This document shows, one piece after another, positions 3,628 through 49,664 of a stretch of DNA of 63,562 bases. The translations under genes were made by a program, and so were the position numbers. The stretch is from Mizuhopecten yessoensis (Eukaryota), in NCBI RefSeq assembly GCF_002113885.1, contig NW_018407979.1:592226-655787 (forward strand), read 5' to 3'. Each line of letters begins with the position of its first letter. Positions within the stretch are counted from its first letter, which is position 1. The notes under the pieces are model-generated. The model was given only the letters and a program-made list of their open reading frames with translations. It had not been told where the DNA came from and searched no databases.

Positions 3628-3718
3628 GAACTCATTTACCCCTAAAGACACATGTGAGCTCTTCCAATTCAAAGGTTGGAATAGTTCATTAAGCAATTTC
3701 AGGGGTGAATGAGTTAAT
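3628..3718. mobile_element. MITE family A copy (about 90-bp palindromic element with TIR CTCATTCACCCCTGAA and TTAA at both ends)
   Basis: Terminal inverted repeats. Recurs 10 times in the window. Confidence 0.7.
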
Positions 3719-4152
3719 CAAATTTTCATCAATAATGACATTTTCACAAAAAAACCCCACCAATTTGTGAGTTCTTGAAAAGACAATGATTATGTTTGTC
3801 CTTTGTCTAATCTCATGCCTGTGATTCGTCCCAGAAATAGCTTTACAGAACAAAATGTGATTTAAACACATGATGTAGTGAAACTCTGGTATGGTCAAAC
3901 AGAGACCTATAAAGCCATATAAATGAAGTATATTCGTCTCTGGGTCAAAAGAACAATAACTGACCATAGCAGACCGGTAATGTAATTTTACTTAGTCTAC
4001 AATTGTTATTTTCTGATTTACAGAAATTTATACCAAATAAAATGTTGACACTTTAGCAGAGACTTCCAATTCACACAGTCTTTGTGAGGGAGATGCAAGT
4101 CCACTAGGTCCACAAAATCAAGAATGTGCATACAAACATGAAAATCAGTTGG

Positions 4153-4243
4153 TTAACCCTTTCACCACTGTAGACCATAATGGACTTATCCAGATCAATG
4201 CATGGTAGAGTCTATTAAAGTTACATAGGGGTGAAAGGGTTAA
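4153..4243. mobile_element. MITE family B copy (piggyBac-like: TTAA|CCCTTTCACC...GGTGAAAGGG|TTAA, about 90 bp)
   Basis: CCC/GGG termini with TTAA flanks. 8 copies in the window. Confidence 0.7.
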
Positions 4244-4705
4244 ACCAAAGTCTGTGACAGTAACAAAAGTGAATTTCTGTTTGGAACATCATGACAACTA
4301 GAAACTGGAGCATGACTCTAGTGACTTCCTAATACATAATATCTATTTATGTTCTGGGGTACGAGAGTTATGCTTTAGATCCCTATGTTCATGATTCCCT
4401 GATCTGTCCAATAGACATGTACAAAGATAACGGCTAAATGAAGAAAATCTCCTAGATCCGAAAAAAACCAAAACAATTAAAAGTCATGTGATGTAGTTCT
4501 CCGGCCAATAAAAACTTGTGTAACATCAAGAATGGGACTGGAAACAATATTATTATGTTTAACAACAAGTCAATGGTACAATTCTATAAAAAAAACATTT
4601 CACTTGCTAACAATAAACATGATGAATTCAGCAAAATGACAATGGTTACATTATGTAAATAGTCAATCTGAAGAAATTTTCGATTCCATCAAAATGTCAA
4701 TGGTA

Positions 4706-4796
4706 AACTCATTCACCCTTGAATACACATTTGAACTCTTCCAAAATCAAATGTTGGAATAGTTCATTATGAAATTGAAGGGATAAATGACTTAAC
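4706..4796. mobile_element. MITE family A copy (degenerate)
   Basis: Alignment to the other family A copies. Confidence 0.55.
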
Positions 4797-4929
4797 AATA
4801 CTTGTCTGGCAATCATAACATGCATAGTAATATTTTGAACACCAACACAAGTCCAACAATAGAAATAAGATGGTTTCATTTTAGCTGCCGGACTTTAACT
4901 CCCCACGTGCGGCTAACAAGGTTGATGAT

Positions 4930-5650
4930 GTCTGGGTGCCCACACAAACGTACACATGCATGTGTGATTATGCAACATCACTATCGTACACATGCACATG
5001 TGATTTCATGGTATCACTGATGTACATTTAACAATGCATGTGTGGCATTTTCTGATGTCACTAACATGATCACAAGCATGTGATTTTTGTAATATCACTG
5101 AATTTTACACGCATGTATAGGAATTCGTGATATCACCGAAACTTGAGCTGCACGGTTGTAACATTGGTTGACAGAAACCCTTATGCAACTGACAGCAGTC
5201 GGAATACATTGGATGTTCTTTACCTGCAATGTGCCATCAATGCCACTCATATGCACGTGTATGAATTCTGTGACGACAATGACGTTCACATGCACGATGT
5301 ATGACTTCATGATGTCACGGAAGTTCCCATACACATATGTAATTTCATGTGTCGCTGACGTGCATGTGTCAGTTTTTGTGACCTCACTAAATTAAGGGAT
5401 ATCACTGAAGTTCACAACCTTGGGCGTGATTTTTTAATACATGTACATACATTACTGACCATCCTGTGCATGCATTGGAATTTGTGATATCACTCATACT
5501 TAAGCTGGCAGGCTGGAGTATTGATTGAAAAAATACCCCATGCATATCACAAAACTTATAATGTCACCATTGTATGATCTTTAACTGCCAAGTGCCATCA
5601 CCGAAATGCACATACAAGTGTGTGATTTGGTAATGTCACTGATGTTTACA
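4930..5650. repeat. Degenerate satellite-like block built from the motif CATGTGTGATT(T)...(G)TAATATCACTGA. It shows a higher-order duplication of about 330 bp (5100-5400 against 5440-5650).
   Basis: Recurring motif every 40-80 bp. Confidence 0.5.
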
Positions 5651-5903
5651 ATTATCAGTATGTATGTTGCAAATAAGAAAAGGAAACGAGTGTAATCAAG
5701 TGTTAAGTGTTACAGATCAACATAGAACTACCTCAGAATTAACAAAATGTCTTTGGTAATAATATTATAGCAGAATATTCACATAGAACAACTGTGATCC
5801 GGACCAAATAAGGCATTTAAAACATGATCTCAAACACAATTCTACTCGACTCCATCACTGACAAAAAAATAGCGCCTAGCTATTGCGAAACAGACCAGAA
5901 CAT

Positions 5904-5992
5904 TAACTCATTCACCCCTAAAGACACATTTGAACTCTTCCAATTCAAAGGTTGGAATAGTTCATTATGAAATTTCAGGGGTGAATGAGTAA
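5904..5992. mobile_element. MITE family A copy
   Basis: TTAACTCATTCACCCCT...AGGGGTGAATGAGT. Confidence 0.7.
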
Positions 5993-6195
5993 ATACCACA
6001 ACTAGAGTTTATATACACTAAAAAATGTCTCCGACAATACCTGACTGGCTAATACGACCATGAATTTCATGGATTTCAGTCACTTTTGCCAAAATGCCTG
6101 CTTTACAGGTTGTAACCAATGGTATTTTTTTCGGAGTGCCTCAGCTATATTGGAGATGAATCCAGGACCACAGACTAGGTCCAGTGCTCTGCAGA

Positions 6196-6673: not shown

Positions 6674-6765
6674 TTAACTCTATCACCCCTGAAATTTCAT
6701 AATGAACTATTCCAACCTTTGAATGGGAGGAGTTCAAATGTGTCTTCAGGGGTGAATGAGTTAAC
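6674..6765. mobile_element. MITE family A copy (opposite internal orientation)
   Basis: TIRs with TTAA flanks. Confidence 0.7.
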
Positions 6766-7530: not shown

Positions 7531-7880
7531 GAGGCACAGTAGTCAAGTGGTAGGAAGCTGGGCTCGTGACCGAAGGGTGAGGGTTCGAATTACAGCACGG
7601 CACTGTATTGTAACTTTGAGCAAGATACTTTACTCTGCTTGTTCCAGTCTACTCAGCTGTAAATGAGTACGTGGTTGGGCAGTGCTAGCAATGTTAAATG
7701 CTAGCTGTGAGCGCCGAAATGGCAGCTCCGGCTGTAGGCTACCAAGGGAATTGAGAAAGATATTGATTGCGAAGGCCCTATAACAAGGGATAATACTTTG
7801 TGAACCGCTTTGAGAAGACCTACGAACTATAGATTGTGATAAAGCGGTATATAAGAACCTCAAATTACTATTCTTAATTA
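7531..7880 (+). mobile_element. tRNA-derived SINE, full length (about 350 bp). tRNA-like head with A box TAGTCAAGTGG and B box GGTTCGAATTA. Conserved body ...CCGCTTTGAGAAGACC...GATAAAGCGGTATATAAGAACCTCAAATTA. (ATT)n-type tail.
   Basis: Pol III box motifs. Two more copies at 8945 and 44111 share 85-90% identity over the body. Confidence 0.6.
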
Positions 7881-8353
7881 TATGTTATTACTGGGAACAT
7901 GAGGAGCTGAGGAAACTTCTACAATATTTGATGTAATAAATGCCCTGGGCACATAACAATTCAACAAAGAAAGCATGATTGTAGAACCTTCTAGATGTCT
8001 CAAATACGGCCATAATAGATCAGTGAAAACTACCTAGTTTACTAGTCTGGGGTGTTCAGACCAGAAAAAGGATTGGGAGCGCTTCAGTAAGTAATGAGTT
8101 GCTTTTTATGAGGAAAACTATATCTTAAAGGTCTTTCCCGTCATCTATTGATTATTAATATTTTTTTCAAGAATGAAAAATGCAAGATCTGCAAATGCAA
8201 GAATGAATTAACATCTATTTATTTTCTATCTATCAGGATTTGGATAAGACATTGTGTTGCAGAAAAAATTGAAATTTTAATTCAAATAAGAGGTAATTTA
8301 TTATAAATATAACATATAGTAACAAATACACATGTAGGCTTTGTTCAGTTTTA

Positions 8354-8445
8354 TTAACTCATTCCCCCCTGAAAAATTATAATGTGCTATTCCAACCTTT
8401 GGGTTGGAAGAGTTCAAATATGTCTTCAGGGCTGAATGAGTTAAC
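8354..8445. mobile_element. MITE family A copy
   Basis: TIRs with TTAA flanks. Confidence 0.7.
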
Positions 8446-8944
8446 AAAAAAAGTGTTTTTTTATCGTTACAAACGAAAGCTAAGTTCTATTGACCACTTT
8501 TAAAAAGAAAAAAATCCTCTGAGGCATTTGTGAGTGGTGTATGCAAATAATGGTTTTGTTGAAAATAAAATTTTGTTCACAGAATAATAACATATCAACA
8601 TTCATAACAAGGTTTTGCATTTTGATCAGATTAAATATATTCAATATCGTATTTATATTAAGGTTTGTTGGCTTTTTGATTTGTTCACACTTCACATGAA
8701 CATATAAAATAATATGTAAACAGATAATTTTCAGGTAATCAAACTTTGTAAAATATGAAATATGTCTGCAAAAAAAAAAAAAGGTGCAGACCTTTATACG
8801 GCAGCGTGATGTCATTATGTGATATTTCAGGTAAGATCCTAAGTCAGTTCAGTCTAATGATAATTCTTCAAAAGCTTTGTGCATCAGACACAAACTTGGG
8901 GCGAGTGATTTGGTTAAAAATCTTCAATATCTACATAATATAGC

Positions 8945-9092
8945 AGGGAGTTAAGAAAGTTATTGACTGATTGCAAAGGCCCTATAACCACGGATAATAA
9001 TTTGTGAACTGCTTTGAGACGACCTACAAACTAGGTTGTGATAAAGCAGTATATAAGAACCTCAAATTATTATTATTATTTTTTTTTTTTTG
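8945..9092 (+). mobile_element. SINE 3' fragment (body plus ATTATTATTATT/T-rich tail)
   Basis: Alignment with 7740-7880 and 44270-44410. Confidence 0.55.
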
Positions 9093-10985
9093 CATCGCTT
9101 AAGCAAATAAAACAGTGTGTCTTTCAATAATCACTGTTATTGAAAACACTATCTTATAAAGTTTTATAGAACATTCATTGGACAGAGAGGCAAATGGAGT
9201 GTAGAGGTTCCTTACCAGGGAAAAAACGCTGTGTTAGTTGGAGATATGGCCATAACCTATTAGAATGTCATGAAAATGGGAGATAACTCATGTTACCTTT
9301 CTTGGAAATACTGTGCAATACGGATAAAAAATGGTTTCTTACCTAAAATCTATTGTTAATTGCTGACATTTTAAGACATTCAAATATTATACATGTAACA
9401 AATACATTTATTTTGATAATCTGCCAAGCCGACACTTTAAACGAAGGAAACATAAATATTGACCTGTGAAAATCAAACAGTGACACGGAAATGATATGGT
9501 TTTCTACACTTTCAATTGAACAAATAGCTGAAATAATGGGAAATTAAATAACAAATAAAGCACTTGAAGTAATAGTAGAAATAAAATTCAGCAAGAAAAA
9601 GAAGAATTATTTACATTAAATGAACTTCAATTATCTACTCTAAACAATTTGTGAATAACACAAGGTCTAATGTCAGCTAAATACAAATTCAACAGGTTTA
9701 TGCTTCAATTCTGCAAAATCTCAAGAACTCTTTCTTTAACTGGTTTTATATATGGTCAGAACTATTACTACACCTTTCCAATTTAGAGCCAGCTGTCCAC
9801 CAAAGAGAATATTTTAACAGACTGATAAGAAATTTCAGGGGCAATGGCTGCTTAAAGAGATAGATTGAGATACCTGCACGTACTAGAAGCAGGCAGCATG
9901 TCCTCAAGTGAAATTTTAGAACACCAATGGAAAATTAAAATGCTTAAAAAGAGATGATACGCCTAAATCCCATTTCTAGAGGTGCAAAATTATCATAAGG
10001 AGGTGCCTGCTGGCCCCAAAGGAACTGTTTTGGGGGTCCATGGCTCCTAAATAAAGAGTTTATTTGAGACCTGAAGTAATCAAATCTTCTGAGACTTACA
10101 GGGTACATACTGGTACAGATATAAGTCCTTTTCAGAGACCATATTTATTATTCCAGAAAATGTAACCCATTTCGGATTCAAATCGTATCAGATTCCTAAC
10201 ATGTCAAATTATACACCTGTACCAACCTTAGAGAAAACTAAAATTGCCCTTATTAAACTTTGAACCGTATACTTTAAATCCGTTTTTAATTTCCATGTTG
10301 TTTCAGATATAAGGCTGTGCACTTATGTTTTTTTTACGAGTGATGAATTATTTTGTACACCTTGCCATTTAACTTACAACATACAATATACATTATAGAG
10401 AGTGTTAATGATACACATGCTGTTCATCAAAATGTGACGTCTAGTAATATGTCATCAAGTGGAATACATTGTAATACTTTTGGTTAAACAAGAGGAAACT
10501 CCATGGTTAAACCACATTTACATACAATAAAACACAAAAAATGACATTAGCTCTTTTGTCCATGCTTTTCACAATGACATGAACGTTCATGAAAACTAAT
10601 ACAACTTTTTTGATTTCTTTACCCGACATGATCATGTTCATCATAATCATAACTAAACAAAACAAACCCAGAAAAACAAAAAACAAACGTAGATTAAATC
10701 TGGAAACATCATTCAATACTAACACATATCTACAACCTAAACAAAACCTGTTTTATAAATACTGACAATCAAATCATGTTCAATCAAATCATGTTCCCTC
10801 AGGTGAGATTCCATCAATTCTAATTCTGCAAAATTGGCATAAGCTCTAGATCTACACCAACAAACACCGTTTTGACAATATTACATGTTTCACACTGTTT
10901 GCAAAACAAATGGGTCAAATTGACAACTTTCATTTTACTTGAAGGATTTCTGATAAACATAACAAAATGATGTCAATCAATTCTC

Positions 10986-11794
10986 TCACATTTGCTGAAG
11001 GCTGTTGCCAAATCTATGAATATAGTCCGTGAACTGTTTCCTTGTCAGCATGTCCATGTTCAGGGTTCGGACCCCGAAGTTTGACAGGATTGTGTCCAGA
11101 TCGTCCAGACTAGACTGGAATGTGTCGTGGAGCTTGACCTGACTGGCCCCTAGACTGGCTACCAGAGGGGTCAGGGGGTTGGAGAAGGGTTTACATATCC
11201 GTAATTTGCTGGATGCCACCGGCTTATCAGCAGGACAGACGGTCTTTGTAACCCTATCCTCCTCGTTGTCTGACTGAGTGGAGAAATGAGACAGCGTTAC
11301 TTTATGAGGCTGCACAGACAGAACACCAATGTTTACATCCTTAGCAACCCCACTCTCTTTTAACGACTTGTCTTTGATAGGAAGTTCTTCGTGTTGATTT
11401 TTAGTGTCAAGACAGTTATCTCCCTTTTTTGTTTCTTCTCCTCTTAAACTGACATCCTCCTTGTCTTCTGAAGCAGGGTCATTATTCCACTTGATGATTC
11501 TCTGCACACGCTCCTTGTCTGAAAACATCTCCTTCTTGCCATTACCCAGCTCAGATTTTAAGGGTTTTCCCTTGTCAGTTAATTTCATAAGAGATTTGTC
11601 CCCAAGAAAGTCCATCACAGTGGTGTCCTTGGTAAATTCCATGAGACACGCTGGGTGATTTGTGTGCTTATCGTAACAGTGTAAATGGAGCTGGTGACGC
11701 AGTGGGGCAGCATAGAAACAGTATACACAGCTGAAGCCAACCTCCAATGCCTCCATCTTTCTTGGATGTAATGTATAGGATGTGGACGATTTTT
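10986..11794 (-). CDS. Probable 3'-terminal coding exon of the same zinc-finger gene. It encodes a further C2H2 finger (FSCVYCFYAAPLRHQLHLHCYDKH) and a Lys/Glu/Asp-rich tail. Stop at 10986-10988.
   Basis: Acceptor ttgtttttgcag|CAG (NAGNAG) at about 11795-11797 on the minus strand. The 266-codon open frame lies downstream of the big exon on the same strand. The exon phase does not match a direct join to 13944, so an intervening exon is expected. Confidence 0.5.
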
Positions 11795-12178
11795 CTGCTG
11801 CAAAAACAATGAATGTACTTTAAAAATAAAATATGAAAAGTGCTGTTGTTTTTGGACTTATTGCACATTTTTACTTCAGATTACATGCTACCTAACACAT
11901 GTACAAATTTATCTCCCTTATTTAGAAAAACAAACAAATTTGTAGAATATATATCCCTCACTTTCATGCAATTTTGTAGCTCTGGACAATGGTTGAGATG
12001 TTCATACTTATTGTACATTTTGCATATACTCTAAAACATGAATTAACAATTAAGCTGACATTTTTAGGGGCATTTACTTCATAGAAAGATGGAAACCAGT
12101 AAACAATCAGAATTTGATAGCCTTATTAATGATACACAACATGCATACATGACATTAGGGATCAACCTTATCATGTGA

Positions 12179-12272
12179 CTTAACCCTTTCATCCCTAGGT
12201 AACCTTAGTAGACTCTACCATACAATTATCTGGATGAGTCCATTTTGGTCCACAGTGGTGAAAGCTGGGTTA
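12179..12272. mobile_element. MITE family B copy (degenerate 3' end)
   Basis: Alignment to the family B consensus. Confidence 0.55.
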
Positions 12273-12292
12273 TGCTTGCCACTTTGTGTGTG

Positions 12293-12374
12293 AACTCATT
12301 CACCCCTGAATACACTCTTCCAATTTAAAGGTTGGAATAGTTCATTATGAAATTTCAGGGGTGAAATAGTTAAT
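12293..12374. mobile_element. MITE family A copy, lying 20 bp from a family B copy (composite insertion site)
   Basis: TIRs. Confidence 0.6.
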
Positions 12375-13314
12375 ACTCAACAAATCAGAATCAAGTACAT
12401 CATGTAGACTTATTACTGTATACGAGGAAACATTCACCCAAATTTTCACACTTGCTGGTAAAATCCATTTTTGCCAAATGTCAGTTTCCCCCTTCACATT
12501 TGAGTATTGTGTTGATACTATCGCTTACTTCTGTTCGATGTAATGATAAATTCGCCCTCATTACGGAGGGTGAAAAAGGCAAAACTTAAACTGAGGCGAA
12601 AATTTCCCGCTATACAGTAATTAATACCTATAGAAATTAGCTTGAGACTCGTAATCATTTATGTGTGTACCAAATTTGGTTCAAATCAAAGCATTTCTGG
12701 GCAGTTACTAAAGTGTATACAGATCTAAACAGATGGACACATCTAAACTAGTACATAATATCCCACTAAACTTGGAATAATAAAAAAAAATACTTTGAAC
12801 AATCGATGCATATTTACATACTATCCATATGGGTATGAAATCATCTTGCCACAAAATACATTTTGAAAAAAGTTATGTATAAATTACAGTACACCTACTC
12901 TTCTGTTCATTAAATTAACTGTATATCTACTGACAAGCATCCTCGAAACTCCAGCAGTTACGTTCTCATACTCTCTGCATCCCTATAGAATACTGTATGT
13001 CATGACGAAACTGAAGGCTCTGTAAGTGCCACGTTATACTTTGTGGATGATCCGATCCCTTGATGTACATGAATCTAAAGAATCTCTAGCGACATTACAA
13101 TTAAACTGATTGGTTTTGAAGTTGGGTGTTGCTCCTCGATAATCTTCAAAGGACAAGTATCGGTCTAGCAATGGGTCATTTTTTTTACCTGAAACTTATC
13201 AACTAGCTAACCATGTGCCTTCCGTTTGTCGTGACATTTTCCTGGGGTGCACAGAACACAAGTGAGCATGACCCCCTATAATTCCGAGGATGACTTTCAG
13301 GTTGATTTAAGTCT

Positions 13315-13516
13315 TGGGGACTGTTTGTTTATGCGGATCAACTGTTTCGTCTGTTTTTAAATGTAAATTTTCAGGTGTAAATCCTGGCCGACCTGCAAAA
13401 GTTTATGCTGGCCTTGCAAGGCTTTGTGAAGGTTGGCCAGTATCGGACCTTATTTCATAAACAAACAACTCTGGTCCGACTGTTTCAACCTTGATCGCGA
13501 TAAACGAAAACGGCCC
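13315..13516 (-). repeat. Interspersed repeat family F (about 210 bp; GGCCGTTTTCGTTTA...TGCTTTCAGGCGAGCC...GCAGGTCCGCCAG...)
   Basis: Three copies (13315-13516 reverse, 26003-26216, 38931-39150) with about 75-80% identity. Confidence 0.5.
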
Positions 13517-13943
13517 TGGTCTTGTTAAAGTAAACATTCATCTTGATCAATATTTTGTTGAATGAGTTGTATTCGTAGGAACTTAAACTAACTTTTCTAC
13601 AATATATGATGTCATCAAACATACACAAACGCGTGCCAAAGAATAACAAAGTTTCGCTGTTAATCTTACTGATACTCAATTGACATTGGTCAGGATTTAC
13701 CGCCAAAAAATAACACTTGGATGAAGGACCATAAAAGAATTGTTTTACCAACTTTGGTTAATATTTTGTGGAGCTTATAGTAAAGTTGAAAATATATAAA
13801 CCAATTACTACATTTGTCATTTAAATTCACTAATGAACAGATTATATCCATTATGGATTTTTTTTATCCATAATCAGAATCGGGAATGGCAATCGGATTG
13901 ATTTTTGATTGTAATAAATTATAATTCTACAGTGTAACTTACC

Positions 13944-16900
13944 TGCTGGTACTATCTCTGATGTCTTGACCTTTCCTGTCTTTCCCTTGCGCTTTGCAAT
14001 AAGCTGCTTGAGATTTTCCCGATCTTTCATAGAATTTAGTTTCATTTTCCACGTCTTAGGAAACTTCTTCAATTTTGGCATAGTCGGAGAAAGATCAGAA
14101 ACAGTAGAATCTGGCTCGATACTACCTTTAGAAGACTTTGGTGTAGACGAACCTTTTGGTGAGGAGATTTCTAAGTTGAGTTCTGGATCTGGTTTGACCA
14201 AGATTGCTTTTCTGTAAACTATTGGCTGCTTGTCTTTGTGATTGCGTCGAATGTGTTGAATGGTGAGAGATTTGGAGTGCGATTTATACTTGCACTCTTT
14301 ACATACCCAGTTCATGGTGTCATGTGCTAGCATCAGGTGCTGCCCAACGCCACGTACTGTCGACTCAAACGGACACTTAGGGCAACGGCCTTTCAACACC
14401 CTGGCTCTGTCTTCAGTATTTGTTATGTCCGGTGCTCCAGTTGACTTGGAAGGTGAGGATTCTGAAGAAAGATTGTACTCATAGACGTCGATCTTACTTG
14501 GAGTCTGTTGTTTGGAGGGTGATGTTTGTCCGTCGATTGATAAGGTCATGACCTTTCCCTGTAGTCCTGGAGTAGTGTCTACCTCAAGGTCTTTTAACAG
14601 ACAGAAACTCCGTACAAGGCTCACCGTCTTTCCGGGGTGCTCCTCCTTGTAGTGTGCGAGACCCTCGTATCTGTTAAGTGTGAAGTAAGTACACTCTGTA
14701 CAGGTGTACTTACACATCTTGTGTACCCAGAAGGCATGAAGCCTCACCCCGTTAATGGACTTTGACTGGTAATCACAAAGAGGACACTTTATCTTCTGTG
14801 GGTCTTTGGCTTTCACCATCACTTTAGCCTGAGACTTGGCCTTAGCTAGCTTCGAATATTTCTGACTGTACTTTTTCACATAGTTTGTCATTCTAGTGGA
14901 CTTCAGCAGGGTTGGTTTCTTCACTGAGGTTCTGGGGTTTTCTCCGTCACCTTCACTTGTGGCACAGTGACAGTTAGCCCTCCCAGGACTGGTACTCATC
15001 CTTTTTCTCTTCACATCTACTGAGCCTTCCTCTGAGGGACACTTATCACAACCTGAATGTATAACTGTTTTCTGTTCACTTTCAGAAACTTGCAATGCTA
15101 ACTTCAGCTTTTTCTTGTAAGGTCCTCTCACCATGTGTCTTTTTTCTAAATCTATGTTAGGTTTCTTTGATAACGCTGGTCTTCCTCTTTTTCGTTTTTC
15201 TGGACTGGCAGGAACGGATATTCCTGTCTCATTAAGGTCTCGCTGTTCCTCCATTGTGCTACTTGTACTGCTGGTAGAAAGTAATGAAGATGCATTATTG
15301 GATTCTGTGCGACTTCTGTTTCTCTTCGGTGGCATTGTAAGACTTTTTGTTCGCTTAACATACTTCCGTTTCACACGAGTGCCTGTGGCTGTAATGCTGT
15401 CCTGTCGCCTCTTCAGGGCTAGCAGACTATTGTTGATGGTTTCTTCTGTAAGAATACCAGTTTCGCTTGCCATTTTTCTCTGTTTCTCTAAACCCCTTGT
15501 AGCTGGGTCTGTCACACAGTCAATCTTTCTCTTTCGCCCCACCCTCTTCTTCTCTGATGACAGGGAAATTTCGGCACCTGCATTTACTTCTTCTTTCAAA
15601 TCTGAGTCTGTTTTTTTCCTTTTTGTCTCCACTAACTTTTCCTTATTTTGGATATTAACAGAAACTCCGGATCCTCTCTTAGATTTCATGACAAAGTGCT
15701 CCTGTGAACTTCCTGTAAGCTTCATTCTCATATATTTACGTTTCAAAGGACCAATGCCATGACCCCTCCCGATCCCCCTGCCCCTTCTCTTTTCTGTAGG
15801 ATCTCTCCAGGTTGGATCACCATCAGATCCACTCACTTCACTTTCCGGTACAGAGTTATCTGTTGAAGACTGGTCAGTTTCTATTTCAAATCTCCTTGAA
15901 CTTCCTCTCTTCCTACCTCTTCCACGACCAGCTTTATAGCCCAACGAATACCTCAAACTTCCTGCTGTGCTTGCTTTTGCCTCCACCATTTGACCATGGG
16001 AAAGTTTCTGTCGACGAACACCATTGTCTAAATTCAAAATTTCTCTTATGGTTTTTGTTCGTCCTTTCTTTTTCTTGTCCTCATTCTCTGTTGGTTGTCG
16101 GGTTGTATCAGGAAGCTTGGTCTGAGAGGCTTGGGAAGCCACTTGTGGACGAACCACGGTCTGTGGCTGTACAGCCATCTGTGCTGGAATTTGTGTTGGT
16201 ATCTGGGCTGGTACTTGTATAGGAATCGGCAATGGCATCTGCATTGGTACTGGAATCGCAATTCCACCAAAAGTTTGGATGAGATTGATTCTGCCGGCTT
16301 GGGTTGCTGCTTGAGCAGACATTACAGCCTCAGCATGAGGAACAGCTATCAAAGGAGTCTGGTTTCTTTGACTTATCATTTGTGGACTTACATTAACATT
16401 TCCTGTGATCTGTGATGCATTTTCTGCAGTAGAAACAACAGGATATGATCCAAGCTCAATCTTTTTCTTTCTACCCGGCCCTCTTCTTCTTGGTCCAACA
16501 ACAGGACTGATTTCAGTGACATCACCTGTAGATTGTACAGTGGGTTCATCTGGGTAAGTTACATACACATGTTCCTTTGTTTTCATAATTTTACTCTTCT
16601 TCTCTGCATGAATTTTCTTTTCCAAGCCTGACTCTGATGAATTTAATTCACCTTCGCCATCTCCAGAATGATCCATATCCTTCTTCCCTGTTGATGTCTT
16701 TGGATTTGTACTTTTGAAATGTTTGAACATGTCAAATGTCACAAGATTGCAGTCTTTGTACTTGGAAGGATTCCTTAGCACTCCACCTTCGGATTTCACC
16801 TTGCCTTCAAGGCGGATACACATTTCCAAGTACTTATCCAAGGCATTGTCCTTCTCTTTCTCAGGAGAAAACTCGTAGTTTTCAAAGCCACTGTGTCTTT

Positions 16901-18377
16901 TCTTGTTGTGGAAATTAAGTGTGGATTTGTCGGTGAACTTGTGACCACATAAGTTACACAGGAAAGGTTTATATTCAATGTTGATAGAAGCATGACGCCG
17001 GAGGTTGGTCTTGATAGGAGTGTTATACTTGCACCCTTTACACTTGTAGGACCTATAGAGTCCAGAGCCTCGGCTGTTTCGATCTGGTGTTGACAAATTT
17101 GAACAATCTGTACTGTTTGATTCATCCAGTCCAGAAGTATCGGATACATTCGGCTCAGCTTCGCCTGTGCTTTTCTCGACCACTTGTCTATCACTAGTTT
17201 CATCCAGAACAACTGCAGGCTTTTCAGTACTTGTAGGCTGTTCATCTGGTAGTGATGGTTTTGTTTGGTCATTCGTTCTAGGTTTGGTGACTAAAGCCAA
17301 GGGTTCCTCTTGTATATCTGGTATTATCTGTCCTTGATCTTTAGAGTCAGTCATTCTAGATGCACTGGATCTTTGCCCTCTACTCTGCTTTTGAACTTTG
17401 CCTCCATCCTGTGCAATATCACTCTCCTTTGAAGCTTGTGTTTCACATGTACTTTTGCCTTCATTTACTGTTTGATTCGTGGGCAATGATTGTTCTGTTT
17501 GTTGTTCAGTCAATACAGCTGAGGTTTTATCATTCGTAGTTTCTTCTTCTGTGTCTTTTTCCTGTTTGTTTTTATCGTCCGTACATATTGTTTCGGATTC
17601 TGATTCTTTTTCTTGTATGTCTGCATCTTTAGGACCACCATTGATTTTGTCTGTTGTTTCTCCCTCGGTTGCATTGCTTTCGTCTTTCTGTTGTAGAGCT
17701 GTTTTCTCTGTCGCCTCATTCACTGATGTCACATCTGGTTTTTCATCTGCCGGTTCCTTCTGTGGTAAAATTTCACATGGTGTCTCTTTGTTTGATAACA
17801 CTTCTTGTTCACTGGGTGTTGTCACTTGAGGTGTTTTTGCTTCATGTAAAATAGGTGATGTAACTTCCGGTGTATCAAGTGATGTCACTTCTTGTGTATC
17901 AAGTGATGTCACTTCCTGTGTACTGGATGATGTCACATCCTGTGAGTTTGATGATGACACTTCCTGTTTATTATCTATTTCAGTGTTGTCTACCGATGGC
18001 AGGCTTTGTTCGACATTTTGATCATTTGAGTTCTCTTCAGTGGTTTTTATAATGGCTGAACAGGGATCAGATTCTTTAATTTTCTGCTCCAACTTTTCCT
18101 CAGAACTGGCTTCCATGTCCTTTTTCTCAATTGGAGAAGGTTCGGTGCTTTGTTTTTGGTTTTCATCTTTTTTTGGATCTTCTTTCGGTTCTGTCACATT
18201 TTCCTTACTTTCAGCATCAGACTTTGCCTCTTCATTCTCTGTACCAGCACTGCCACATTGGTCAGTTACCACGCTCTCCGAGGTTGAAGTATCCGAAGAG
18301 GTTTTCTGGTCCGAGACTGGTTGCTCGCTACTGACATCATTGGCGGCTTTTTCAGCAATTGTATCAGACGTTGCCAT
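13944..18377 (-). CDS. Main coding exon (about 1478 codons) of a large nuclear AT-hook plus C2H2 zinc-finger protein. It has an acidic Ser/Thr/Glu-rich N-terminus with QEVTSLDT repeats and multiple GRP/RGRG/KRKRGRP AT-hook-like motifs. A Pro/Gln-rich block (PVPMQMPLPIPIQVPAQIPTQIP) is present. Three pairs of C2H2 fingers occur (YKCKGCKY...HNKKRH, CPLCDYQ...HYKEEH, CPKCPFE...RRNH).
   Basis: Uninterrupted 4.4-kb ORF in a 35%-GC genome. ATG at 18377 is preceded by an acceptor-like tgttttttcag (about 18437), suggesting an upstream 5'UTR exon. Consensus donor AG|GTAAGT at 13943/13942 ends the exon in phase 0. The remaining 93 nt of the raw ORF are intronic read-through. Confidence 0.8.
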
Positions 18378-19453: not shown

Positions 19454-19558
19454 TGCAAAGAGTGTCTTAGTACCTCCCTAGTGCTTTCATCTCTTTAGAG
19501 GTCATGAACCTCTAAAGAGCTGAAAGCACTAGGGAGGTACACTAAGACACTCTTTGCA
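19454..19558. repeat. Near-perfect hairpin: 48-bp arms (GCAAAGAGTGTCTTAGTACCTCCCTAGTGCTTTCA.CTCTTTAGAGGT) around a 5-nt loop
   Basis: Reverse-complement identity of the arms. Confidence 0.8.
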
Positions 19559-27425: not shown

Positions 27426-27516
27426 TTAACTCATTCACCCCTGAAATTTCTTAATGAACTGTTCCAACCTTTGAACTAGAAGAGTTCAAATGTGTCTTCA
27501 GGGGTGAATGAGTTAA
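27426..27516. mobile_element. MITE family A copy
   Basis: TIRs with TTAA flanks. Confidence 0.7.
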
Positions 27517-32212: not shown

Positions 32213-32303
32213 TTAACTCATTCACCCCTGAAGACACATTTGAACCTTTCCAACTCAAAGGTTGGAAGAGTTCATTATGAAGTTTCAGGGGTGAATGGGT
32301 TAA
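32213..32303. mobile_element. MITE family A copy inside MVP intron 3
   Basis: TIRs with TTAA flanks. Confidence 0.7.
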
Positions 32304-33117: not shown

Positions 33118-33235
33118 GTAAGATTTGTCGATGTCATAGAATTTGTCAGGTTTTTGGGTTGAAAGATAACAGAATATGATATCATATAATGATTATAAAA
33201 GTGAGACTATAATACTTTCATTTTGCTTAGGAATT

Positions 33236-35259: not shown

Positions 35260-35349
35260 TTAAGCCTTTCAACACTGTGACCATAATGGACTCATCCAGA
35301 TCAATGCATGGTAGAGTCTACTAAAGTTGCATAGGGGTGAAAGGGTTAA
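35260..35349. mobile_element. MITE family B copy inside MVP intron 7
   Basis: TIRs. Confidence 0.65.
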
Positions 35350-38930: not shown

Positions 38931-39150
38931 GTTTATTGCAATCCAAATAGTTGGACCAGCTGGACCAGAGTTATTCGTTAATGAAATAAGGGCGGACTTA
39001 TTAACCTCTCGCTGCTTTCAGGCGAGCATTGACAAAGCCTTGCAAGGCCTGCATGAAGATTCGCAGGTCCGCCAGCATTTGTACCCGAAAATGTTAATTT
39101 AAAAACGGATGTACCCTTTGTTACACATAAATAGCCAATGAACAAGCCCC
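38931..39150 (+). repeat. Interspersed repeat family F copy
   Basis: Alignment to the other F copies. Confidence 0.5.
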
Positions 39151-39729: not shown

Positions 39730-39820
39730 TTAACCCTTTCACCCATATGTAACTTTAGTAGACTCTACCATGCATTGATATGGATGAGTTCATTATGGTT
39801 TACAGTGATGAAAGGGTTAA
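39730..39820. mobile_element. MITE family B copy
   Basis: TTAACCCTTTCACCC...ATGAAAGGGTTAA. Confidence 0.7.
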
Positions 39821-40459: not shown

Positions 40460-40649
40460 ATTCCGTCTTTGCGTATTGCAGAGTTATCTTCTCTTGGGAA
40501 CAGGTATTGATTGTTACGTCATTGGTTTGTGTGAGAAAATCACGTCGTTTTCTCAAAAATTGATGACGTTACTCTCACAAACAAGTGACGTAACAATCAA
40601 TCCCTGCTCCCAAGAGAAGATAACTCTGCAATATGCAAAGACGGAATAG
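40460..40649. mobile_element. Fold-back/MITE family E copy (about 190 bp, nearly perfect palindrome). Arms begin ATTCCGTCTTTGC(G/T)TATTGCAGAGTTATCTTCTCTTG. Core carries TTACGTCA bZIP-like motifs.
   Basis: Second copy at 62255-62447 with about 90% identity. Confidence 0.6.
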
Positions 40650-41933: not shown

Positions 41934-42024
41934 TTAACCCTTTCAACACTGTAGACTATAATAGACTCATCCAGATCAATTTATGGTACAGGTTATTAAA
42001 AGTTACATAGGGGTGAAAGGGTGA
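41934..42024. mobile_element. MITE family B copy
   Basis: TIRs. Confidence 0.65.
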
Positions 42025-42915
42025 AGATCCCAAAAGCAGAGCAATCAGATAGGAAGTTGGGTAACTTTTAAGGATGCCAGAACAAATATATACCGTACAG
42101 TAACACAATCAAAATTGACAATGATTATTACATCTAGATACAAAAACATCTTAATAAAAAGTTTGTTGACAATTATAAAAAAAAATAAAAAATCAATAAT
42201 GGTATATATTAAATAACATTATTTATCACAATCTAACTATTAATACTTATTATGATACCCCACTGGACGTCCCACAGAGTGGCACCATATTCAGACAATT
42301 TTACTCCGGAAATCATTTTGGGATACCTGAAATAATAATAGTTTCACTTCCTCAAATTCATATGAGCAACGATCTGTTTGTAAATGTGCCTCCACTAATA
42401 TATTTCTTCATGATGGAAGATTTATTGGAAACTTGTGATGTAAATATTTTCTCTCATAAGTGTAAGAAGATCTTTTATTGGTAGAAGATATAGCATTTCC
42501 AATGTAAATTCAAATTGATTTCTAAAACAGTTAAGTTTCAAATTGCTGTGTAAAATACCAGAAGAAACACAAATGATATATGATAATTCTTAATAATTTC
42601 AAATTATTAAAAAAATGTGTCATTGCTTTTAACCTCAGTTGGGAATTCTGCAATTCTTTTTTTTTTTTGCGTAACAAAATGTGATATAATATAATTATTA
42701 TCATAATCGGTAATCTCAAAAATAATATCTTTTATTACTTATCTTTGTTTATACATGACAGGCTTCATTTGATTTTAACTTAAGTCAGCAGAATTTTATT
42801 TTGAATTTAAAATGTGAAAAAATCACCTGTTTTATGGAATAACTGTTTATATAGTTTCTGCAACAGTAACACTTCTAAAAATAGTCTTCCTTAAATACAA
42901 AATATAAATTTTATG

Positions 42916-43000
42916 TTAACCCTTTCACCCCTATGTAACTTTAGTACCATGCACTGATCTGGATGAGTCCATTACAGTTTACAGTGGTGAAAAGGTTAAC
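42916..43000. mobile_element. MITE family B copy
   Basis: TIRs with TTAA flanks. Confidence 0.7.
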
Positions 43001-44110: not shown

Positions 44111-44410
44111 GCAGGGGGTGGGCTCGTGTCCGAAGGTTCGAGTCATTGCACTCCGCTTGTTCCAGTCTACTTAGCTGTAAATGAGTACGTGTTTGGGCAG
44201 TGCCAGAATTGTTGAATGCTAGCTGTGAGCCCCGAAATGGCAGCACCGGCTGTATGCTCCCCAGGGAGTTGAAAAAGATATTGGCTGGTTGCAAAGGCCC
44301 TATAACCACGGATAATAATTTGTGAACCGCTTTGAGACGACCTACAAATTAACTGGGTTGTGATAAAGCGGTATATGAGAACCTCGAATTACTTATTATT
44401 ATTAGTAGTA
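44111..44410 (+). mobile_element. SINE copy, 5'-truncated (B box retained)
   Basis: Alignment with 7570-7880. Confidence 0.6.
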
Positions 44411-46691
44411 GAGTGCCTTGTTTCCAAAAATATCAGGGGACTAGAACTCGTATTTATGCTGTCGTTGTGTTGATGTAAATTTTAATATAAACATGTACAA
44501 TTGCTCAGTAACTGCATGTAGTTGTGGTCAGGTCATTCTCTCATAGCCATTGAAATTTAAATACATTTGGATCAAGGTCACTATATTATGTCACCAATTA
44601 AATAATCACTGCCAAAATTATACAAGCAAGCACTGTTATGCTACCTTATATTTGTACTGCTTTGTGCCTTTAATGACTGTTTCTGAATTCCTAATATAAC
44701 TTGATTGAAAATACGAATTTTCATAATAGCTTGATTGAAAATACTGTTTTTTGTGTCTCATGATTATTACCCCGTACACCGCAGTGTACACGCACATACT
44801 GTGTAAATGTCTGGCCTTCCCAGAGTTTTTATGTTCTAGAAATGCGATACAGATTTAAAACAGGACTATTAACTCCGGGGACACACCTGAGGTGTTAGGA
44901 TATGTAGCATTCTACTGTATATCTGTTCCTGTCGTTAATTAAAAAATTCTCATTAATATCTTTAATGCAATGAAGTATTTACAGAACAGTCAACTGTGAA
45001 TTTAAAAAAACATAAAGATAAAAAAACAATACTGTGACATTTTTACACTATTTCAAAATTCAAATTTTAAAAATTTTAAAATATCTGGTCACCCATTTTT
45101 TTTTTTAAATTCCCCACAGTTCCCACAATGATTCATAGTAAAAATATGAACTTATTGTTTTTAAAGTAACAACTCATGTTTTCATTTGTTTTAAATTATT
45201 TTTTTAATACTAAAATCAAGGAAGATAGAATTCCATACAAATATAAGATAAACAATTATCCACTCGACCAATTATTTATCGTTAGTCATAATAAAAAAGT
45301 CAATACAAAATTTAGCAGACATTAACAAAGCACAGTTTTGTTTTACAATAATAACTATATACACCATACACTAAAGTGTTGCTTGTAAGCTGTAAAGATT
45401 ATGGTAAGTTATTGTTGATCATTACAGCTATTGTTTTCCATACAGAACACAATACAATATGTACACACAAAGTACTTGGTACCTTTAAAAACACACCAAA
45501 AATAAATAAATATCATATGTTATTGGAACTTCCGACAATTCAATATTGTTAAAAAATTATCAAAATTTTAAACATAAATATGCTCCAAATATTTCTACGT
45601 TCATCAAATTCGATATAAAACAGAAAAAAAAATGAAATAAACATAAAATCTACTGAAAAAAATTGATGGCACACAATCTGATCAATAACAAAGATAATTA
45701 TTACAGAAATTATTCACATAATAAAACATGAAAGGTTGTACGTGACATTACATTGTGCAATCGTCAAGGTAGTCAAAAAAATCAATTAAAGACTGATTTA
45801 TATATTTCTTACAACTCATAACACAGTATTTGTTCTTTAAAAAAAAAAGAGAAAAAAAACCCCTGTCTCAGATTGAACTAAATAAAACTTTGCATGAATC
45901 ATTAGTATTACTGCAGACAGAAATCCTCTTTGATTTCCAAAATGCATCACCTTAGCTAGAGATGGTTTTACAGTTTGTTAATTGATGGATTAAAGCATCA
46001 GGCCACCCTACAATGACTTACTTGGCATTTTCAAGACCATGTTTATGAGATTGTGAAATTCAGGGACACATGCATGCTTGAAATATACACAAGAATCCAT
46101 ACAATGAAAACACCCTAATGATACTGAATCCTTGGATATCTAATATTCATATCTAAAGAATGCAACATTAACTCTATGGATAATTTCCGTTTATATTTTT
46201 AACACATTGATAATCCTCCGTCATTGGATAATTTACATCTTTAACACTCTGGTAATTCAGAGTTAAAGGATACATTTTGTTCATATTTTAACTCTTGGAT
46301 AATTCTGAGACATTGGATAACGTCCATTTATAGTTATAACATAAAACAACTCAAGCACAAATATTAAGTATAAGTTTTTTTTATCTATCCTTCAAAGACA
46401 CCCAATATCGTTCATACCTTATTATTAACATCTGTACATAATTAACACATACCTATCTACATGAACAGCAGGTAAAGAAGAATGACGATAATATTTACGC
46501 ATGCATTGAGTCCAAGTGTTCAAACCATAATTATCTATAATTGAACAAACTTAAAAAATTTAATATACTACTGCATTGATTGTAGTAAGAAAAGAAAATA
46601 TTTATAGTTCAATAGAAGGTGGGTTCTTGCTTAATTCTGGTGTATTGTTTGTGGTTTGCTTAGGACTTAAAAATGGTTCAATAATATATAA

Positions 46692-46779
46692 ACTTATTCA
46701 CCCCTGAAATTTTATAATGAACTATTCCAACCTCTGAGTTGGAAGAGTTCAAATGTGTCTTCAGGGGTGAATGAGTTAA
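46692..46779. mobile_element. MITE family A copy (5' end truncated)
   Basis: TIRs. Confidence 0.6.
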
Positions 46780-46944
46780 GGGTAAAATATATGTAGCAAC
46801 ATCTCTGTACCTTGATATACTGTAAAATCCCATCTTGATAGTTTGTAACCTGTACCATGGCCATCATATTTCTATGCATGGATACAGGAGAAGTCTATTT
46901 TATCATAGGTGAAATAGAATTTACTGGGAGTGGATGTGCGCAGT

Positions 46945-47340
46945 GATTAAACAGGTGACATGAGAAGCCACATCATGACATGTGAAGCCACATCATGACA
47001 TGAGAAGCCACATCAGAAGCTACATCATGACATCTGAAGCCACATCAGAAGCCACATCAGGACATGTGAAGCCACATCATGACATGGGGAGCCACATCAA
47101 AAGCCACATCATGACATGTGAAGCCGCATCAGAAGCCATATCATGACATGTGAAGCCACATAAGAAGCTACATCATGACATGGGAAGCCACATCATGACA
47201 TGGGAAGCCACATCATGACATGGGAAGCCACATCAAAAGCCATATCATGACATGTGAAGCCACATAAGAAGCTACATCATGACATGGGAAGCCACATCAG
47301 AAGCTACATCATGACATGTGAAGCCACATCATGACATGTG
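46945..47340. repeat. Minisatellite, about 20 copies of an 11/22-bp unit GAAGCCACATCATGACATG(T/G)
   Basis: Visible tandem periodicity. Confidence 0.8.
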
Positions 47341-47738
47341 AATTTACTTCTAACATAAACTTTCACAATTATTTTGTAATAAATAAAGCAATTATTATGA
47401 GTACCAAGTCTAAAAGTCTAACCTAAACTTAAATTGACTTTTTTTTCCCAACGATCCCCAACATCCAAGTGGAACCATAGTCCTCTCTGCCTGTAGGTCT
47501 TGGACAACGATTCCCCAAGGTTTTTTCACAGCATGTGGAAACATGATTTTGATAATTTCCCAATAGTTTCTAAATGAATATTCATGGATGAAGTGATATT
47601 CAATCCCAATTTAATTATTTTTTTGAGATTGATTCCCTTATACCTGATGTCCATTTCTTAAAAAAGAAAAAAAACCACCAAAAAACAAACCTCAGTTGTC
47701 CACGAAAGTCTATACCCTTGGAAAGAAATGTATACAGG

Positions 47739-47829
47739 TTAACCCTTTCACCTCTATGTAGCTTTAGTAGACTCTACCGTGCATTGATCTGGATGAATCC
47801 ATTATGGTCTACAGTGATGAAAGGGTTAA
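47739..47829. mobile_element. MITE family B copy
   Basis: TIRs with TTAA flanks. Confidence 0.7.
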
Positions 47830-48394
47830 TTAATGAAGTCTGACGAATTGAATGATTTACTTGAGACCAGAATCCTTGCAAATATACACGTACAGGCGCA
47901 CACAAAACAAATTCACTACAAACTTCAGTAGTTCACGTCACTAATTTATCAAAAATGAGCCAGTGTGTTTAATATCATCATATGGGGGAAATTTACAAAT
48001 GGAATCATGACTTTTGAAGTTTCATCACCTTCAACTGTTATTTGTGTGCTACAAAAATAAACATTTTAAATTTCGTCTTCACCATAATTTGACAAAGCTT
48101 ACCTGGTAAACTTGTATATACACAGACATTAAATCATCACAATAGATTCTTCACCTAAAGTAACATTTATCATTAACAGAAAAAAATTCATTAAATTATT
48201 AATTTTGATTGGATGATAATATAATGAATAGTTTTATCAATATCTATTATATATTAAAAAGTAAAAAAAAATCAAAACATTCTTTTATGACAGAGACTTA
48301 GTTTTGATATACATTTATGTATGTATGATTCAGGAGTAAATCCATTCATAGTAGACAAGTAACACATTTGCATCCAAAGTTCATGATAAAAGAA

Positions 48395-48830
48395 ACAAGC
48401 CATTCGGATTGATATGTCTCGCCTATGACCTGCTTTGACCTTCAATGCACATATCAGAGAAACTAACTTAAACGCAAAAACTTCATGTTGACGGAGATGC
48501 TGACAAAGTCAATGGACCATGAAAGGTAGGCCGCATCCAGCATTTAATGCATGGGTTGAGATGTACTACCTAAGATGCATCTATGGTCCAAGTTTGGTGT
48601 AACACTTCTACTTTCAGTGAAACTAACTTAAACGCAAAACAAATCATGTTGATGGAGATGCTGACCAAGTCAATGGACCCTGAAAGGTAGGCCGCATCCA
48701 GCATTTAATGCATGGGTTGAGATGTACTACCTAAGATGCGTCTATGGTCCAAGTTTGGTTGGTGTAGCACTTATACTTTCAGAGAAACTAACTTACACAC
48801 AAAATCGTAATGTTGACGCCGCCATCACCA
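48395..48830. repeat. About 2.5 tandem copies of a roughly 165-bp unit (GAGAAACTAACTTAAACGCAAAA...GTCAATGGACC(A/C)TGAAAGGTAGGCCGCATCCAGCATTTAATGCATGGGTTGAGATGTACTACCTAAGATGC...). Its first 80 bp recur at 53370-53450.
   Basis: Direct alignment of 48455-48617 with 48620-48790. Confidence 0.65.
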
Positions 48831-49024
48831 GAAAAGCAACACCTAGGGTATGTCTTGCTTCCACTTCGTGGCGGCGAGACAAAAAATATTGGAAGAGAAG
48901 GAAAATGCATGATTTTTATCTTAGTCCATGAATGCATATAATCTTGATATAATTTCAATGTTCCATTTCGCCACCTAGAGCTAGCTTACCAAATTGTTTT
49001 CTACAATCCCCTTTTCCATTCTTA

Positions 49025-49115
49025 TTAATCCTTTCACCACCATAGACCATAATGGACTCACCCAGATAAATGTAAGGTAGAGTCTACTAAAGTTACCTAG
49101 GGGTGAAAGGGTTAA
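49025..49115. mobile_element. MITE family B copy
   Basis: TIRs with TTAA flanks. Confidence 0.65.
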
Positions 49116-49568
49116 TAGTTTCTTTATTTGTCTTCTTTGACTTACAAATGTATTGCAAAACTGTTTCATATTGCAAAAAATGTGCAGGATAAAATCATGG
49201 TGGGCAAATCATAGAGTGCTACTATGCATATTTATATCTATAACAAGTAAATGATAGATTACGAGACAGATTCCGGTGGTATAGCTATCACAATGTTCTA
49301 CTAACATTTCTACCTCCATACTTGAAGAGTGATTTGTTTAGATCTTGTACATATTGAAACAGGAAGACTGTCGTGGTGTTAAACCAAGATGACCTTACTT
49401 CAACATAACAGCATCGTATTATAAACTAGAAATCATTGTTAAAATCGCTCCATTGTCTTTTTGTAAAAACTGACAAAAATGTCCCTAAACAACATACACC
49501 ATGAGGACAGGTCGCTAGGTAAGGGGTACTGTATACCAGTAATTTGACATTCTTCCTTTTTCAAAGTT

Positions 49569-49664
49569 ACTAACTCATTCACCCCTGAAGTTTCAAAATG
49601 AACTACATATTCCAACCTTTGAATGGGAGAGTTCAAATGTGTCTTCAGGGGTAAATGAGTTAAC
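49569..49664. mobile_element. MITE family A copy
   Basis: TIRs with TTAA flanks. Confidence 0.7.

Follow-up and report, generated by a model that had tools for sequence, protein, structure and literature searches.

MITEs of the piggyBac superfamily are known by name from human (MER85 and MER75) and Xenopus (Uribo/Kobuta-related), with sizes of ~140–240 bp, and moth piggyBac is generally said to need ~100 bp of end sequence. The repeats described here, from the scallop Mizuhopecten yessoensis, resemble these named MITEs in their putative TTAA target-site duplication (TSD), their termini of the 5'-CCC(TTT)...GGG-3' type, their lack of coding sequence, their small uniform size and many dispersed copies, and a transposase presumably supplied in trans. 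They differ in being only 83 bp long, shorter than the named MITEs and than the end sequence of moth piggyBac, and in forming two co-resident subfamilies, ~61% identical over their full length, one of which starts with CTC instead of CCC.

Two other groups of bivalve repeats invite comparison. Kolobok and KolobokP elements have been reported in bivalves including M. yessoensis (PMC9587614, PMC10294476), and are like the present repeats in their TTAA TSD and in their abundance in bivalve genomes; however, Kolobok termini are 5'-RR...YY-3' (PMC9587614), whereas those found here are YY...RR and the cognate transposase identified for such ends is piggyBac. The MITE-like elements of the CvA/pearl type are non-autonomous interspersed repeats in scallops, again including M. 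yessoensis (PMC5874043), with subterminal inverted repeats, a tandem-repeat core and a microsatellite, none of which is present in the 83-bp elements. The literature retrieved on scallop and bivalve MITEs, piggyBac and TTAA consists of surveys of bivalve transposable elements (TEs) and work on CvA/pearl, in which the 83-bp elements are undescribed, and querying the literature with the terminal sequences gave nothing but chance matches to primers. On the evidence presented below, the 18 repeats are very probably non-autonomous piggyBac-superfamily MITEs, representing two subfamilies of one 83-bp element that is served by a transposase in trans and inserts at TTAA.

Copies and their distribution

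The window, the whole 63.5-kb stretch of DNA that was analyzed (63,562 nucleotides) and that a 1508-aa ORF identified as M. yessoensis, contains 10 copies of family A and 8 copies of family B, all of full length (Table 1). The window was searched for fuzzy matches to the termini and, by blastn, with the two consensus sequences; this recovered exactly the numbers given in a preliminary description of this DNA, with no extra copies or fragments of either family. The element core is 83 bp, or 91 bp with both TTAAs, and ranges from 75 to 86 bp in copies with indels. Copies are 86–99% identical to their own consensus. Flanking DNA differs from copy to copy and is unique for all 18, which indicates dispersed insertions rather than segmental duplications. 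Short, uniform in length, non-coding and dispersed in 18 copies, the repeats have the general properties of MITEs.

Table 1. Copies of families A and B in the window. Intervals include the flanking tetranucleotides; identity is to the consensus of the family.
Family	Interval	Strand	Core	5' / 3' flank	Remarks
A	3627..3717	+	3631-3713	TGAA (decayed TTAA) / TTAA	93% identity
A	4704..4795	+	4708-4791	TAAA / TTAA	1-bp insertion; 88% identity
A	5903..5993	+	5907-5989	TTAA / TAAA	99% identity
A	6674..6764	-	6678-6760	TTAA / TTAA	
A	8354..8444	-	8358-8440	TTAA / TTAA	
A	12291..12373	+	12295-12369	TGAA / TTAA	8-bp internal deletion; LOC110457723 intron
A	27426..27516	-	27430-27512	TTAA / TTAA	perfect 20-nt terminal inverted repeat including TTAA
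A	32213..32303	+	32217-32299	TTAA / TTAA	non-coding, between two MVP-region ORFs, read as MVP intron
A	46689..46779	-	46693-46775	TAAA / TTAA	
A	49570..49663	-	49574-49659	CTAA / TTAA	3-bp insertion
B	4153..4243	+	4157-4239	TTAA / TTAA	98% identity
B	12180..12273	-	12184-12269	TTAA / TTAT	2-bp insertion near one end; LOC110457723 intron
B	35260..35349	+	35264-35345	TTAA / TTAA	MVP intron
B	39730..39820	-	39734-39816	TTAA / TTAA	
B	41934..42025	+	41938-42021	TTAA / TGAA	
B	42916..42999	-	42920-42995	TTAA / TTAA	7-bp internal deletion
B	47739..47829	-	47743-47825	TTAA / TTAA	
B	49025..49115	+	49029-49111	TTAA / TTAA	

All 18 copies are intronic or intergenic in M. yessoensis, and those near mapped genes occupy LOC110457723 introns or non-coding parts of the major vault protein (MVP) region. 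None of the copies is crossed by a long reading frame, the longest run without a stop being 108 codons, at one copy on one strand. A very high genome-wide copy number, as put forward in the preliminary description, would be an extrapolation. Neither family is present in the orthologous region of Ylistrum balloti (L129, 26.6 kb), the one other pectinid locus covered by the analysis. This region can be aligned to the window in exons only, and the intron holding the B copy at 12184 and the A copy at 12295, the latter 21 bp (12270–12290) from the core of the former, cannot be aligned to its introns. The repeats are also absent from eight loci of other organisms, with short introns, that were obtained from MVP matches (L001–L008); the best match to the MVP exon was only 78% identical.

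The preliminary description drew attention to A and B copies situated close together and suggested an insertion hotspot or a composite element. Three such pairs do exist, with an A copy no more than 600 bp away for three of the eight B copies, but this is a number that chance can produce (1.45 expected; P = 0.16 for random B positions, 0.15 when both families are random and 0.27 for label shuffling), and the overall dispersion of the copies is likewise unexceptional (P = 0.18). Moreover, the DNA between the copies at 4157 and 4708 has no similarity to that between the copies at 49029 and 49574. Since the proximity is not significant and the intervening DNA is not homologous, both the hotspot and the composite element were rejected.

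Termini shared with piggyBac elements

Family B has the ends CCCTTTCACC...GGTGAAAGGG, of the CCC...GGG type, and family A the ends CTCATTCACC...GGTGAATGAG, starting with CTC. The first base is C and the last base G in all 18 copies, with consensus termini CC/CT...GG/AG (YY...RR). These inverted repeats are of the piggyBac type, 5'-CC[C/T]...[G/A]GG-3', and autonomous elements belonging to the same clade likewise have CTC ends (L137, L138 and the right end of L132; see below), as does family A. The two consensus sequences align colinearly over the whole 83 bp, and their internal 51 bp align with a score of 10, compared to -6.5 ± 3.9 in shuffles (maximum of 5 in 500); A and B are two subfamilies of one 83-bp element. 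The shared core proposed earlier, the 9-mer TTCACCCCT, does occur 18 times in the window (0.40 expected; maximum of 3 in 100 shuffles); however, the homology spans all 83 bp, and in family B the 9-mer is exact at just one of the two ends, the opposite one reading TTCACCACT.

A metagenome was scanned for the MITE terminus. The 120 pattern matches include many that are apparently due to chance in seemingly bacterial coding DNA, and by our own estimate a collection this large would yield ~100 chance matches to a degenerate 18-mer; the matches used were only those that recur as termini of repeat families. Many unrelated repeat families in the metagenome start with TTAA followed by CCCTTTCACC[A/C]CTG. 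One of them is a 2729-bp element (L019, 1610–4338) that is bounded by TTAA and CCCTTTCACCACTGGCC on one side and by GGCCAGTAGTGGTGAAAGGG and TTAA on the other, with a 606-aa ORF matching Pfam family DDE_Tnp_1_7 (PF13843) over the whole profile (E = 9.5e-71). Thus, cognate termini (CCCTTTCACCACTGG) are present on a PF13843-encoding element of another species; the host-associated contig with this full piggyBac element is taken to be coral-derived. Contig L044 has A-type and B-type termini on elements of one family. An apparent element of 1.4–2.2 kb in L095 turned out to be two independent element starts rather than one long element.

In Pinctada imbricata, a bivalve of another order, a 2630-bp element (L132, 2731–5360) encodes a 597-aa PF13843 transposase (P0146) and contains subterminal repeats of the terminal inverted repeat (TIR) motif. 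Its left end is TTAA followed by CCCTTTCAACACTGCAGACC, and its right end, reverse-complemented, is TTAA followed by CTCTTTCAACACTGAGTAACTTT; the left and right ends of family B are identical to these at 22 and 19 of 24 positions, respectively. The scallop repeats share with this element and its relatives (L133, L137 and L138) a terminal class consisting of TTAA followed by C[C/T]CTTTCA[A/C]C[A/C]CT. Family B additionally shares CTG[C/T]AGACC at the left end and GTAACTT at the right end, each at the corresponding end, and the right-end-specific GTAACTT, contained in CCCTTTCACCCCTATGTAACTTT, is also found in L133 and L137. The 14-bp terminus CCCTTTCACC[A/C]CTG is carried by piggyBac elements of bivalves and of presumed coral-derived contigs, the transposases of which are ~36% identical. 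The likeness of the MITEs to autonomous elements is confined to the terminal 24–30 bp, and their interior has no similarity to the 2.6-kb Pinctada element past that distance from either end. None of the fetched loci contains an autonomous element with ends exactly matching family A, no piggyBac transposase was detected in the window by tblastn, and the last homologue search gave no match named M. yessoensis.

TTAA flanks, folding and alternative readings

TTAA is present on the 5' side of 13 of the 18 copies and on the 3' side of 15, compared to a background frequency in the window of 0.84% per position, and every other flank (TGAA, TAAA, CTAA or TTAT) is one substitution away. Because TTAA is a palindrome, TIR and TSD can be separated by sequence only with an empty site, and when the two flanks of each of the 18 copies are joined, they match only themselves in the window, where no paralogous empty site was found. 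The same ambiguity has been discussed for Spy elements (PMC4122938), and it would permit TTAA to be partly inverted repeat, with a true TSD of TA (Tc1/mariner, Stowaway-like), of 3 bp, TWA (PIF/Harbinger, Tourist-like), or none at all (Spy-like). Such an arrangement is very improbable. The outermost bases (T at -4 and A at +4) are kept in 17 of the 18 copies on each side, contrary to a TSD of TA alone, and a 3-bp TSD would make the element ends asymmetric; furthermore, the homologous ends are found on elements that encode piggyBac transposases and are themselves flanked by TTAA, while no Tc1/mariner or PIF transposase with these ends is present in any fetched locus. The flanks and the homologous autonomous elements instead suggest that the whole TTAA is duplicated on insertion of a piggyBac MITE.

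Both consensus sequences fold as strong DNA hairpins (z = -10.1 for A and -6.0 for B), although the families are not fully palindromic as first described: the terminal inverted repeats extend for 16–20 bp, the interior is partly complementary, overall, A is 77% and B 70% self-complementary, and the orientation of every copy can be recognized. The very stable folds, and four stem positions at which A and B differ by compensatory changes, could be taken to indicate dispersed functional hairpins, such as microRNA or small-RNA precursors or regulatory palindromes, instead of, or by now in addition to, selfish transposons. The probability of this is slighter still. The covariation amounts to one split between A and B, mostly in the transposase-binding ends, and compensatory changes are expected if a single transposase has to fit both ends. 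In addition, covariance models of Rfam 15 gave no match at gathering score in the whole window, the copies diverge by 1–14% from consensus and several have indels, both orientations occur in the same gene, and none is found in the orthologous Ylistrum locus. Least probable of all is that the repeats are MITEs of Kolobok, the other TTAA-duplicating eukaryotic superfamily, which has the TTAA flanks in common and is on record in this species, since Kolobok ends are RR...YY, which the termini CC/CT...GG/AG exclude, and the terminal 14–24 bp match, exactly or almost exactly, those of PF13843-encoding elements.

Proposed mobilization and significance

The piggyBac assignment follows from the TTAA flanks, the YY...RR termini and the presence of the same ends on PF13843-encoding elements; these data, obtained in part from other species, bear out the original proposal of two related piggyBac-type families, including the class of the CCC...GGG termini of family B. 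Each copy would consist of ~20–30 bp of a piggyBac left end and of a right end, with a short non-coding spacer between them. A piggyBac transposase encoded elsewhere in the scallop genome would recognize the terminal inverted repeats, C[C/T]C[A/T]TTCACC[A/C]CT..., excise the element by precise cut-and-paste and insert it at TTAA, which would be duplicated on both sides; inserted copies would then decay neutrally to their present identities. One transposase, or two close relatives, probably serves both A and B.

With ends that match those of true piggyBac elements from other bivalves and from coral-associated DNA, the repeats are ordinary members of a well-known class that are unusually short and dense, and they do not challenge current understanding. 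A bolder proposal, which we regard as unlikely, is that they are among the shortest naturally amplified piggyBac substrates, present ~10^5 times in a scallop genome otherwise described as TE-poor, and that the paired changes at their subfamily ends, together with the 14-bp terminus kept by elements whose transposases are only ~36% identical, define an ancient, unusually constrained module of transposase-end recognition and a natural minimal set of ends. On a small scale, they also allow a comparison in nature of the minimum of end sequence required by a piggyBac transposase, and of the conservation of left- and right-end motifs from bivalve elements to coral-like contigs. Their significance is mainly for annotation: the two families make up ~2.6% of the window and occupy introns of MVP and a zinc-finger gene, and should therefore be masked under the label of piggyBac MITEs rather than left as unclassified MITEs. 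The genes that host the intronic copies, MVP and the zinc-finger gene, are themselves ordinary genes.

Copies and structure of the 83-bp element

The 9-mer TTCACCCCT occurs 18 times in the window, against an expectation of 0.4. Terminus searches and blastn with both consensus sequences recovered ten copies of family A and eight of family B, all full length, and no further copies or fragments in the window. The repeat family is real, and these searches bear out the two TTAA-flanked MITE families with 18 copies that the preliminary description had correctly spotted. The element core measures 83 bp, a very small and mildly notable size, with small indels in five copies, and mean pairwise identity within a family is 88%. 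TTAA flanks the left end of 13 of the 18 copies and the right end of 15; each of the other flanks is one substitution away from TTAA, which has a background frequency of 0.84% per position. Since the flanking DNA of all 18 copies is unique within the window, the copies represent independent insertions. None is spanned by a long reading frame.

Families A and B can be aligned colinearly from end to end with no real gaps, and their consensus sequences share 61% identity; individual copies are 86–99% identical to their own consensus and 53–63% to that of the other family. For the 51-bp interior, outside the 16-bp ends, A and B align with a score of 10, compared with −6.5±3.9 for shuffled sequences (maximum 5 in 500). 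Because of this significant interior similarity and the colinear alignment, A and B are two subfamilies of a single 83-bp element. The relationship proposed earlier thus holds, but it is not limited to a shared 9-mer, as the homology spans the full element, interior included.

Both subfamilies are prone to form hairpins, with single-strand DNA folding energies of −30.2 (A) and −18.8 (B) kcal/mol (z = −10.1 and −6.0). They had been described as fully palindromic; they are, however, only partly self-complementary (A, 77%; B, 70%), and the orientation of each copy is clear. Paired changes between A and B are found at four stem positions, mostly within the terminal repeats and all belonging to one single A/B split, a pattern expected where one protein has to accommodate both ends.

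Relationship to piggyBac elements

TTAA duplications are made by two eukaryotic superfamilies, piggyBac and Kolobok. Kolobok elements have 5'-RR...YY-3' termini (PMC9587614), in contrast to the CC/CT...GG/AG termini of the scallop elements, and a Kolobok assignment was therefore rejected.

Metagenome contigs were scanned for TTAACYCWTTCACCMCTG, giving at least 120 matches, where approximately 100 were expected by chance according to our own estimate. Many matches look like chance occurrences in apparently bacterial coding DNA. Many others mark the start of repeat families present on several independent contigs; the accession series of these contigs presumably belong to host-associated metagenomes, from corals and other marine sources. 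One locus (L019) holds a 2729-bp element with the ends TTAA|CCCTTTCACCACTGGCC ... GGCCAGTAGTGGTGAAAGGG|TTAA and an ORF of 606 aa, which matches the piggyBac transposase domain DDE_Tnp_1_7 across the entire Pfam profile (E = 9.5e-71). A decayed copy of this element is present at L028, whereas L021, L024 and L098 hold a second lineage of piggyBac that shares the terminus.

With the L019 transposase as a query, a group of 595–599-aa piggyBac transposases was identified (36–37% identical to the query) that includes P0146 of the pearl oyster Pinctada imbricata. The P0146 locus (L132) contains a 2630-bp element with the left end TTAA|CCCTTTCAACACTGCAGACC and, reverse-complemented, the right end TTAA|CTCTTTCAACACTGAGTAACTTT. 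The family B left end (TTAACCCTTTCACCACTGTAGACC) matches the Pinctada left end at 22 of 24 positions, and its right end (TTAACCCTTTCACCCCTATGTAACTTT) matches the Pinctada right end at 19 of 24. The right-end-specific GTAACTT is common to both right ends and is also found in the relatives L133 and L137. Because its ends match in this way, family B looks like the left end joined to the right end of a piggyBac of the P0146 clade. The CTC terminus of family A also occurs on autonomous ends (the L132 right end, L137 and L138). Autonomous elements with cognate ends thus exist in other species. It is mildly notable that the terminal 14-mer is conserved in elements with transposases of only ~36% identity. 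With TTAA flanks and ends matching elements that encode a DDE_Tnp_1_7 transposase, the 83-bp family had been correctly assigned to the piggyBac superfamily.

Among the matches listed for L009–L128, TTAA+CCCTTTCACC[A/C]CTG begins many unrelated MITE-like families of 96–574 bp (for example at L029, L080, L018, L052, L063 and L070), on contigs from several sample series that presumably represent different hosts. This piggyBac end motif appears to be widespread and conserved. Four contigs from the Ga0308011/Ga0308012 metagenomes (L013, L015, L044 and L095) carry elements of ~200 bp that share ~80% identity with one half of family A and probably derive from a related mollusc. In L044, A-type and B-type termini occur on members of one single repeat family, and an A-type end abuts a B-type end as ...GAATGAGTTAA|TTAACCCTTTC....

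Bivalve genomes are rich in MITEs, and both piggyBac and Kolobok elements are present in them. M. yessoensis has been described as comparatively TE-poor (PMC10294476). The MITE-like CvA/pearl elements described from scallops (PMC5874043) differ in structure from the 83-bp elements. Our literature search found no paper describing the latter; Repbase or Dfam may already list them.

Mobilisation and distribution

The standard MITE mechanism is the best explanation for the 83-bp elements. A piggyBac transposase encoded elsewhere (none was found within the window) would bind the terminal repeats and excise the element, which would go in at a TTAA, duplicating it, and the inserted copies would then decay. 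No paralogous empty site for any of the 18 copies turned up in the window. We infer that the scallop elements are mobilised in trans; their excision would be precise, and A and B may be cross-mobilised.

A–B proximity had been taken to suggest insertion hotspots or a composite element. Three B copies lie less than 600 bp from an A copy, which is unremarkable (P = 0.15–0.27), and the copies overall are not over-dispersed (P = 0.18), so hotspots fail as an explanation. The composite element fails on the same proximity values and since the ~465-bp stretches between two similarly spaced B–A pairs are unrelated.

The window is animal DNA with a G+C content of ~35%. A 1508-aa ORF (13851–18377, minus strand) is 100% identical to the NCBI entry 'uncharacterized protein LOC110457723 isoform X2 [Mizuhopecten yessoensis]', and tblastn with major vault protein (MVP) homologues placed MVP exons at 33.6–36.1 kb. 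These matches identify the window as nuclear DNA from the Yesso scallop. The LOC110457723 intron contains copies B12184 and A12295, and the MVP region contains A32217 and B35264; all copies near mapped genes are in introns or non-coding DNA.

The zinc-finger gene LOC110457723 has an orthologue in Ylistrum balloti (L129, JAUZWB010000736.1; 65% protein identity; compared with window positions 10939–25760). No copies or such termini were found in the 26.6 kb around this orthologue, the only other pectinid region covered; at this single locus, their absence points to lineage-specific amplification. The intron of the zinc-finger gene spans 2.1 kb in M. yessoensis and 1.3 kb in Ylistrum. Upstream lie short blocks of conserved non-coding or exon sequence.

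Other repeats in the window

Coordinates of mapped genes, repeats and metagenome elements
Feature	Position	Strand	Remark
LOC110457723 protein, two exons	18377-13938 + 11816-10989	minus	protein mapped onto window
MVP segments	ORFs between ~31.6 and 36.3 kb	plus	
Blocks conserved with L129	20961-21817; 25253-25760		
188-bp repeat	40460-40647; 62256-62443		
SINE-like repeat	7632-7889; 8944-9091; 44150-44413		
Dispersed repeat	26027-26177; 29690-29779; 38955-39105		around/within MVP region
34-bp tandem array	23399-23674		
30-bp tandem array	33213-33392		MVP region
Complex tandem array	46926-47377		12/20/32-bp spacings; adjoins A46693
~160-bp tandem array	48434-48804		just upstream of B49029
145-147-bp tandem array	54632-55449		4-5 units
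Palindrome 1	19470-19540		within inverted repeat 19439-19573
Palindrome 2	59174-59253		
~200-bp family-A-like elements	L044 2439-2556; L013 1-69 + 241-437; L015 607-817; L095 from 66		metagenome
TTAA+CCCTTTCACC[A/C]CTG families	L029 57-154; L080 559-654		metagenome

The 188-bp hairpin-type repeat is distinct from the 83-bp element and is probably another MITE family. Its arms of 79–85 nt are 78–91% complementary, its ends read ...TCCGTCTTTGC[G/T]TATTGCAGAGT...ACTCTGCAATA[T/C]GCAAAGACGGA..., and its flanks are not TTAA. The three copies of an interspersed repeat (73–92% identical) have 3' ends that pass into A/T-rich simple sequence, and this repeat looks SINE-like; the three copies of the dispersed repeat are 71–81% identical. 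Two near-perfect palindromes, one with 33-nt arms (97% complementary) within a 135-bp inverted repeat and the other with 36-nt arms (94% complementary), occur once each in the window.
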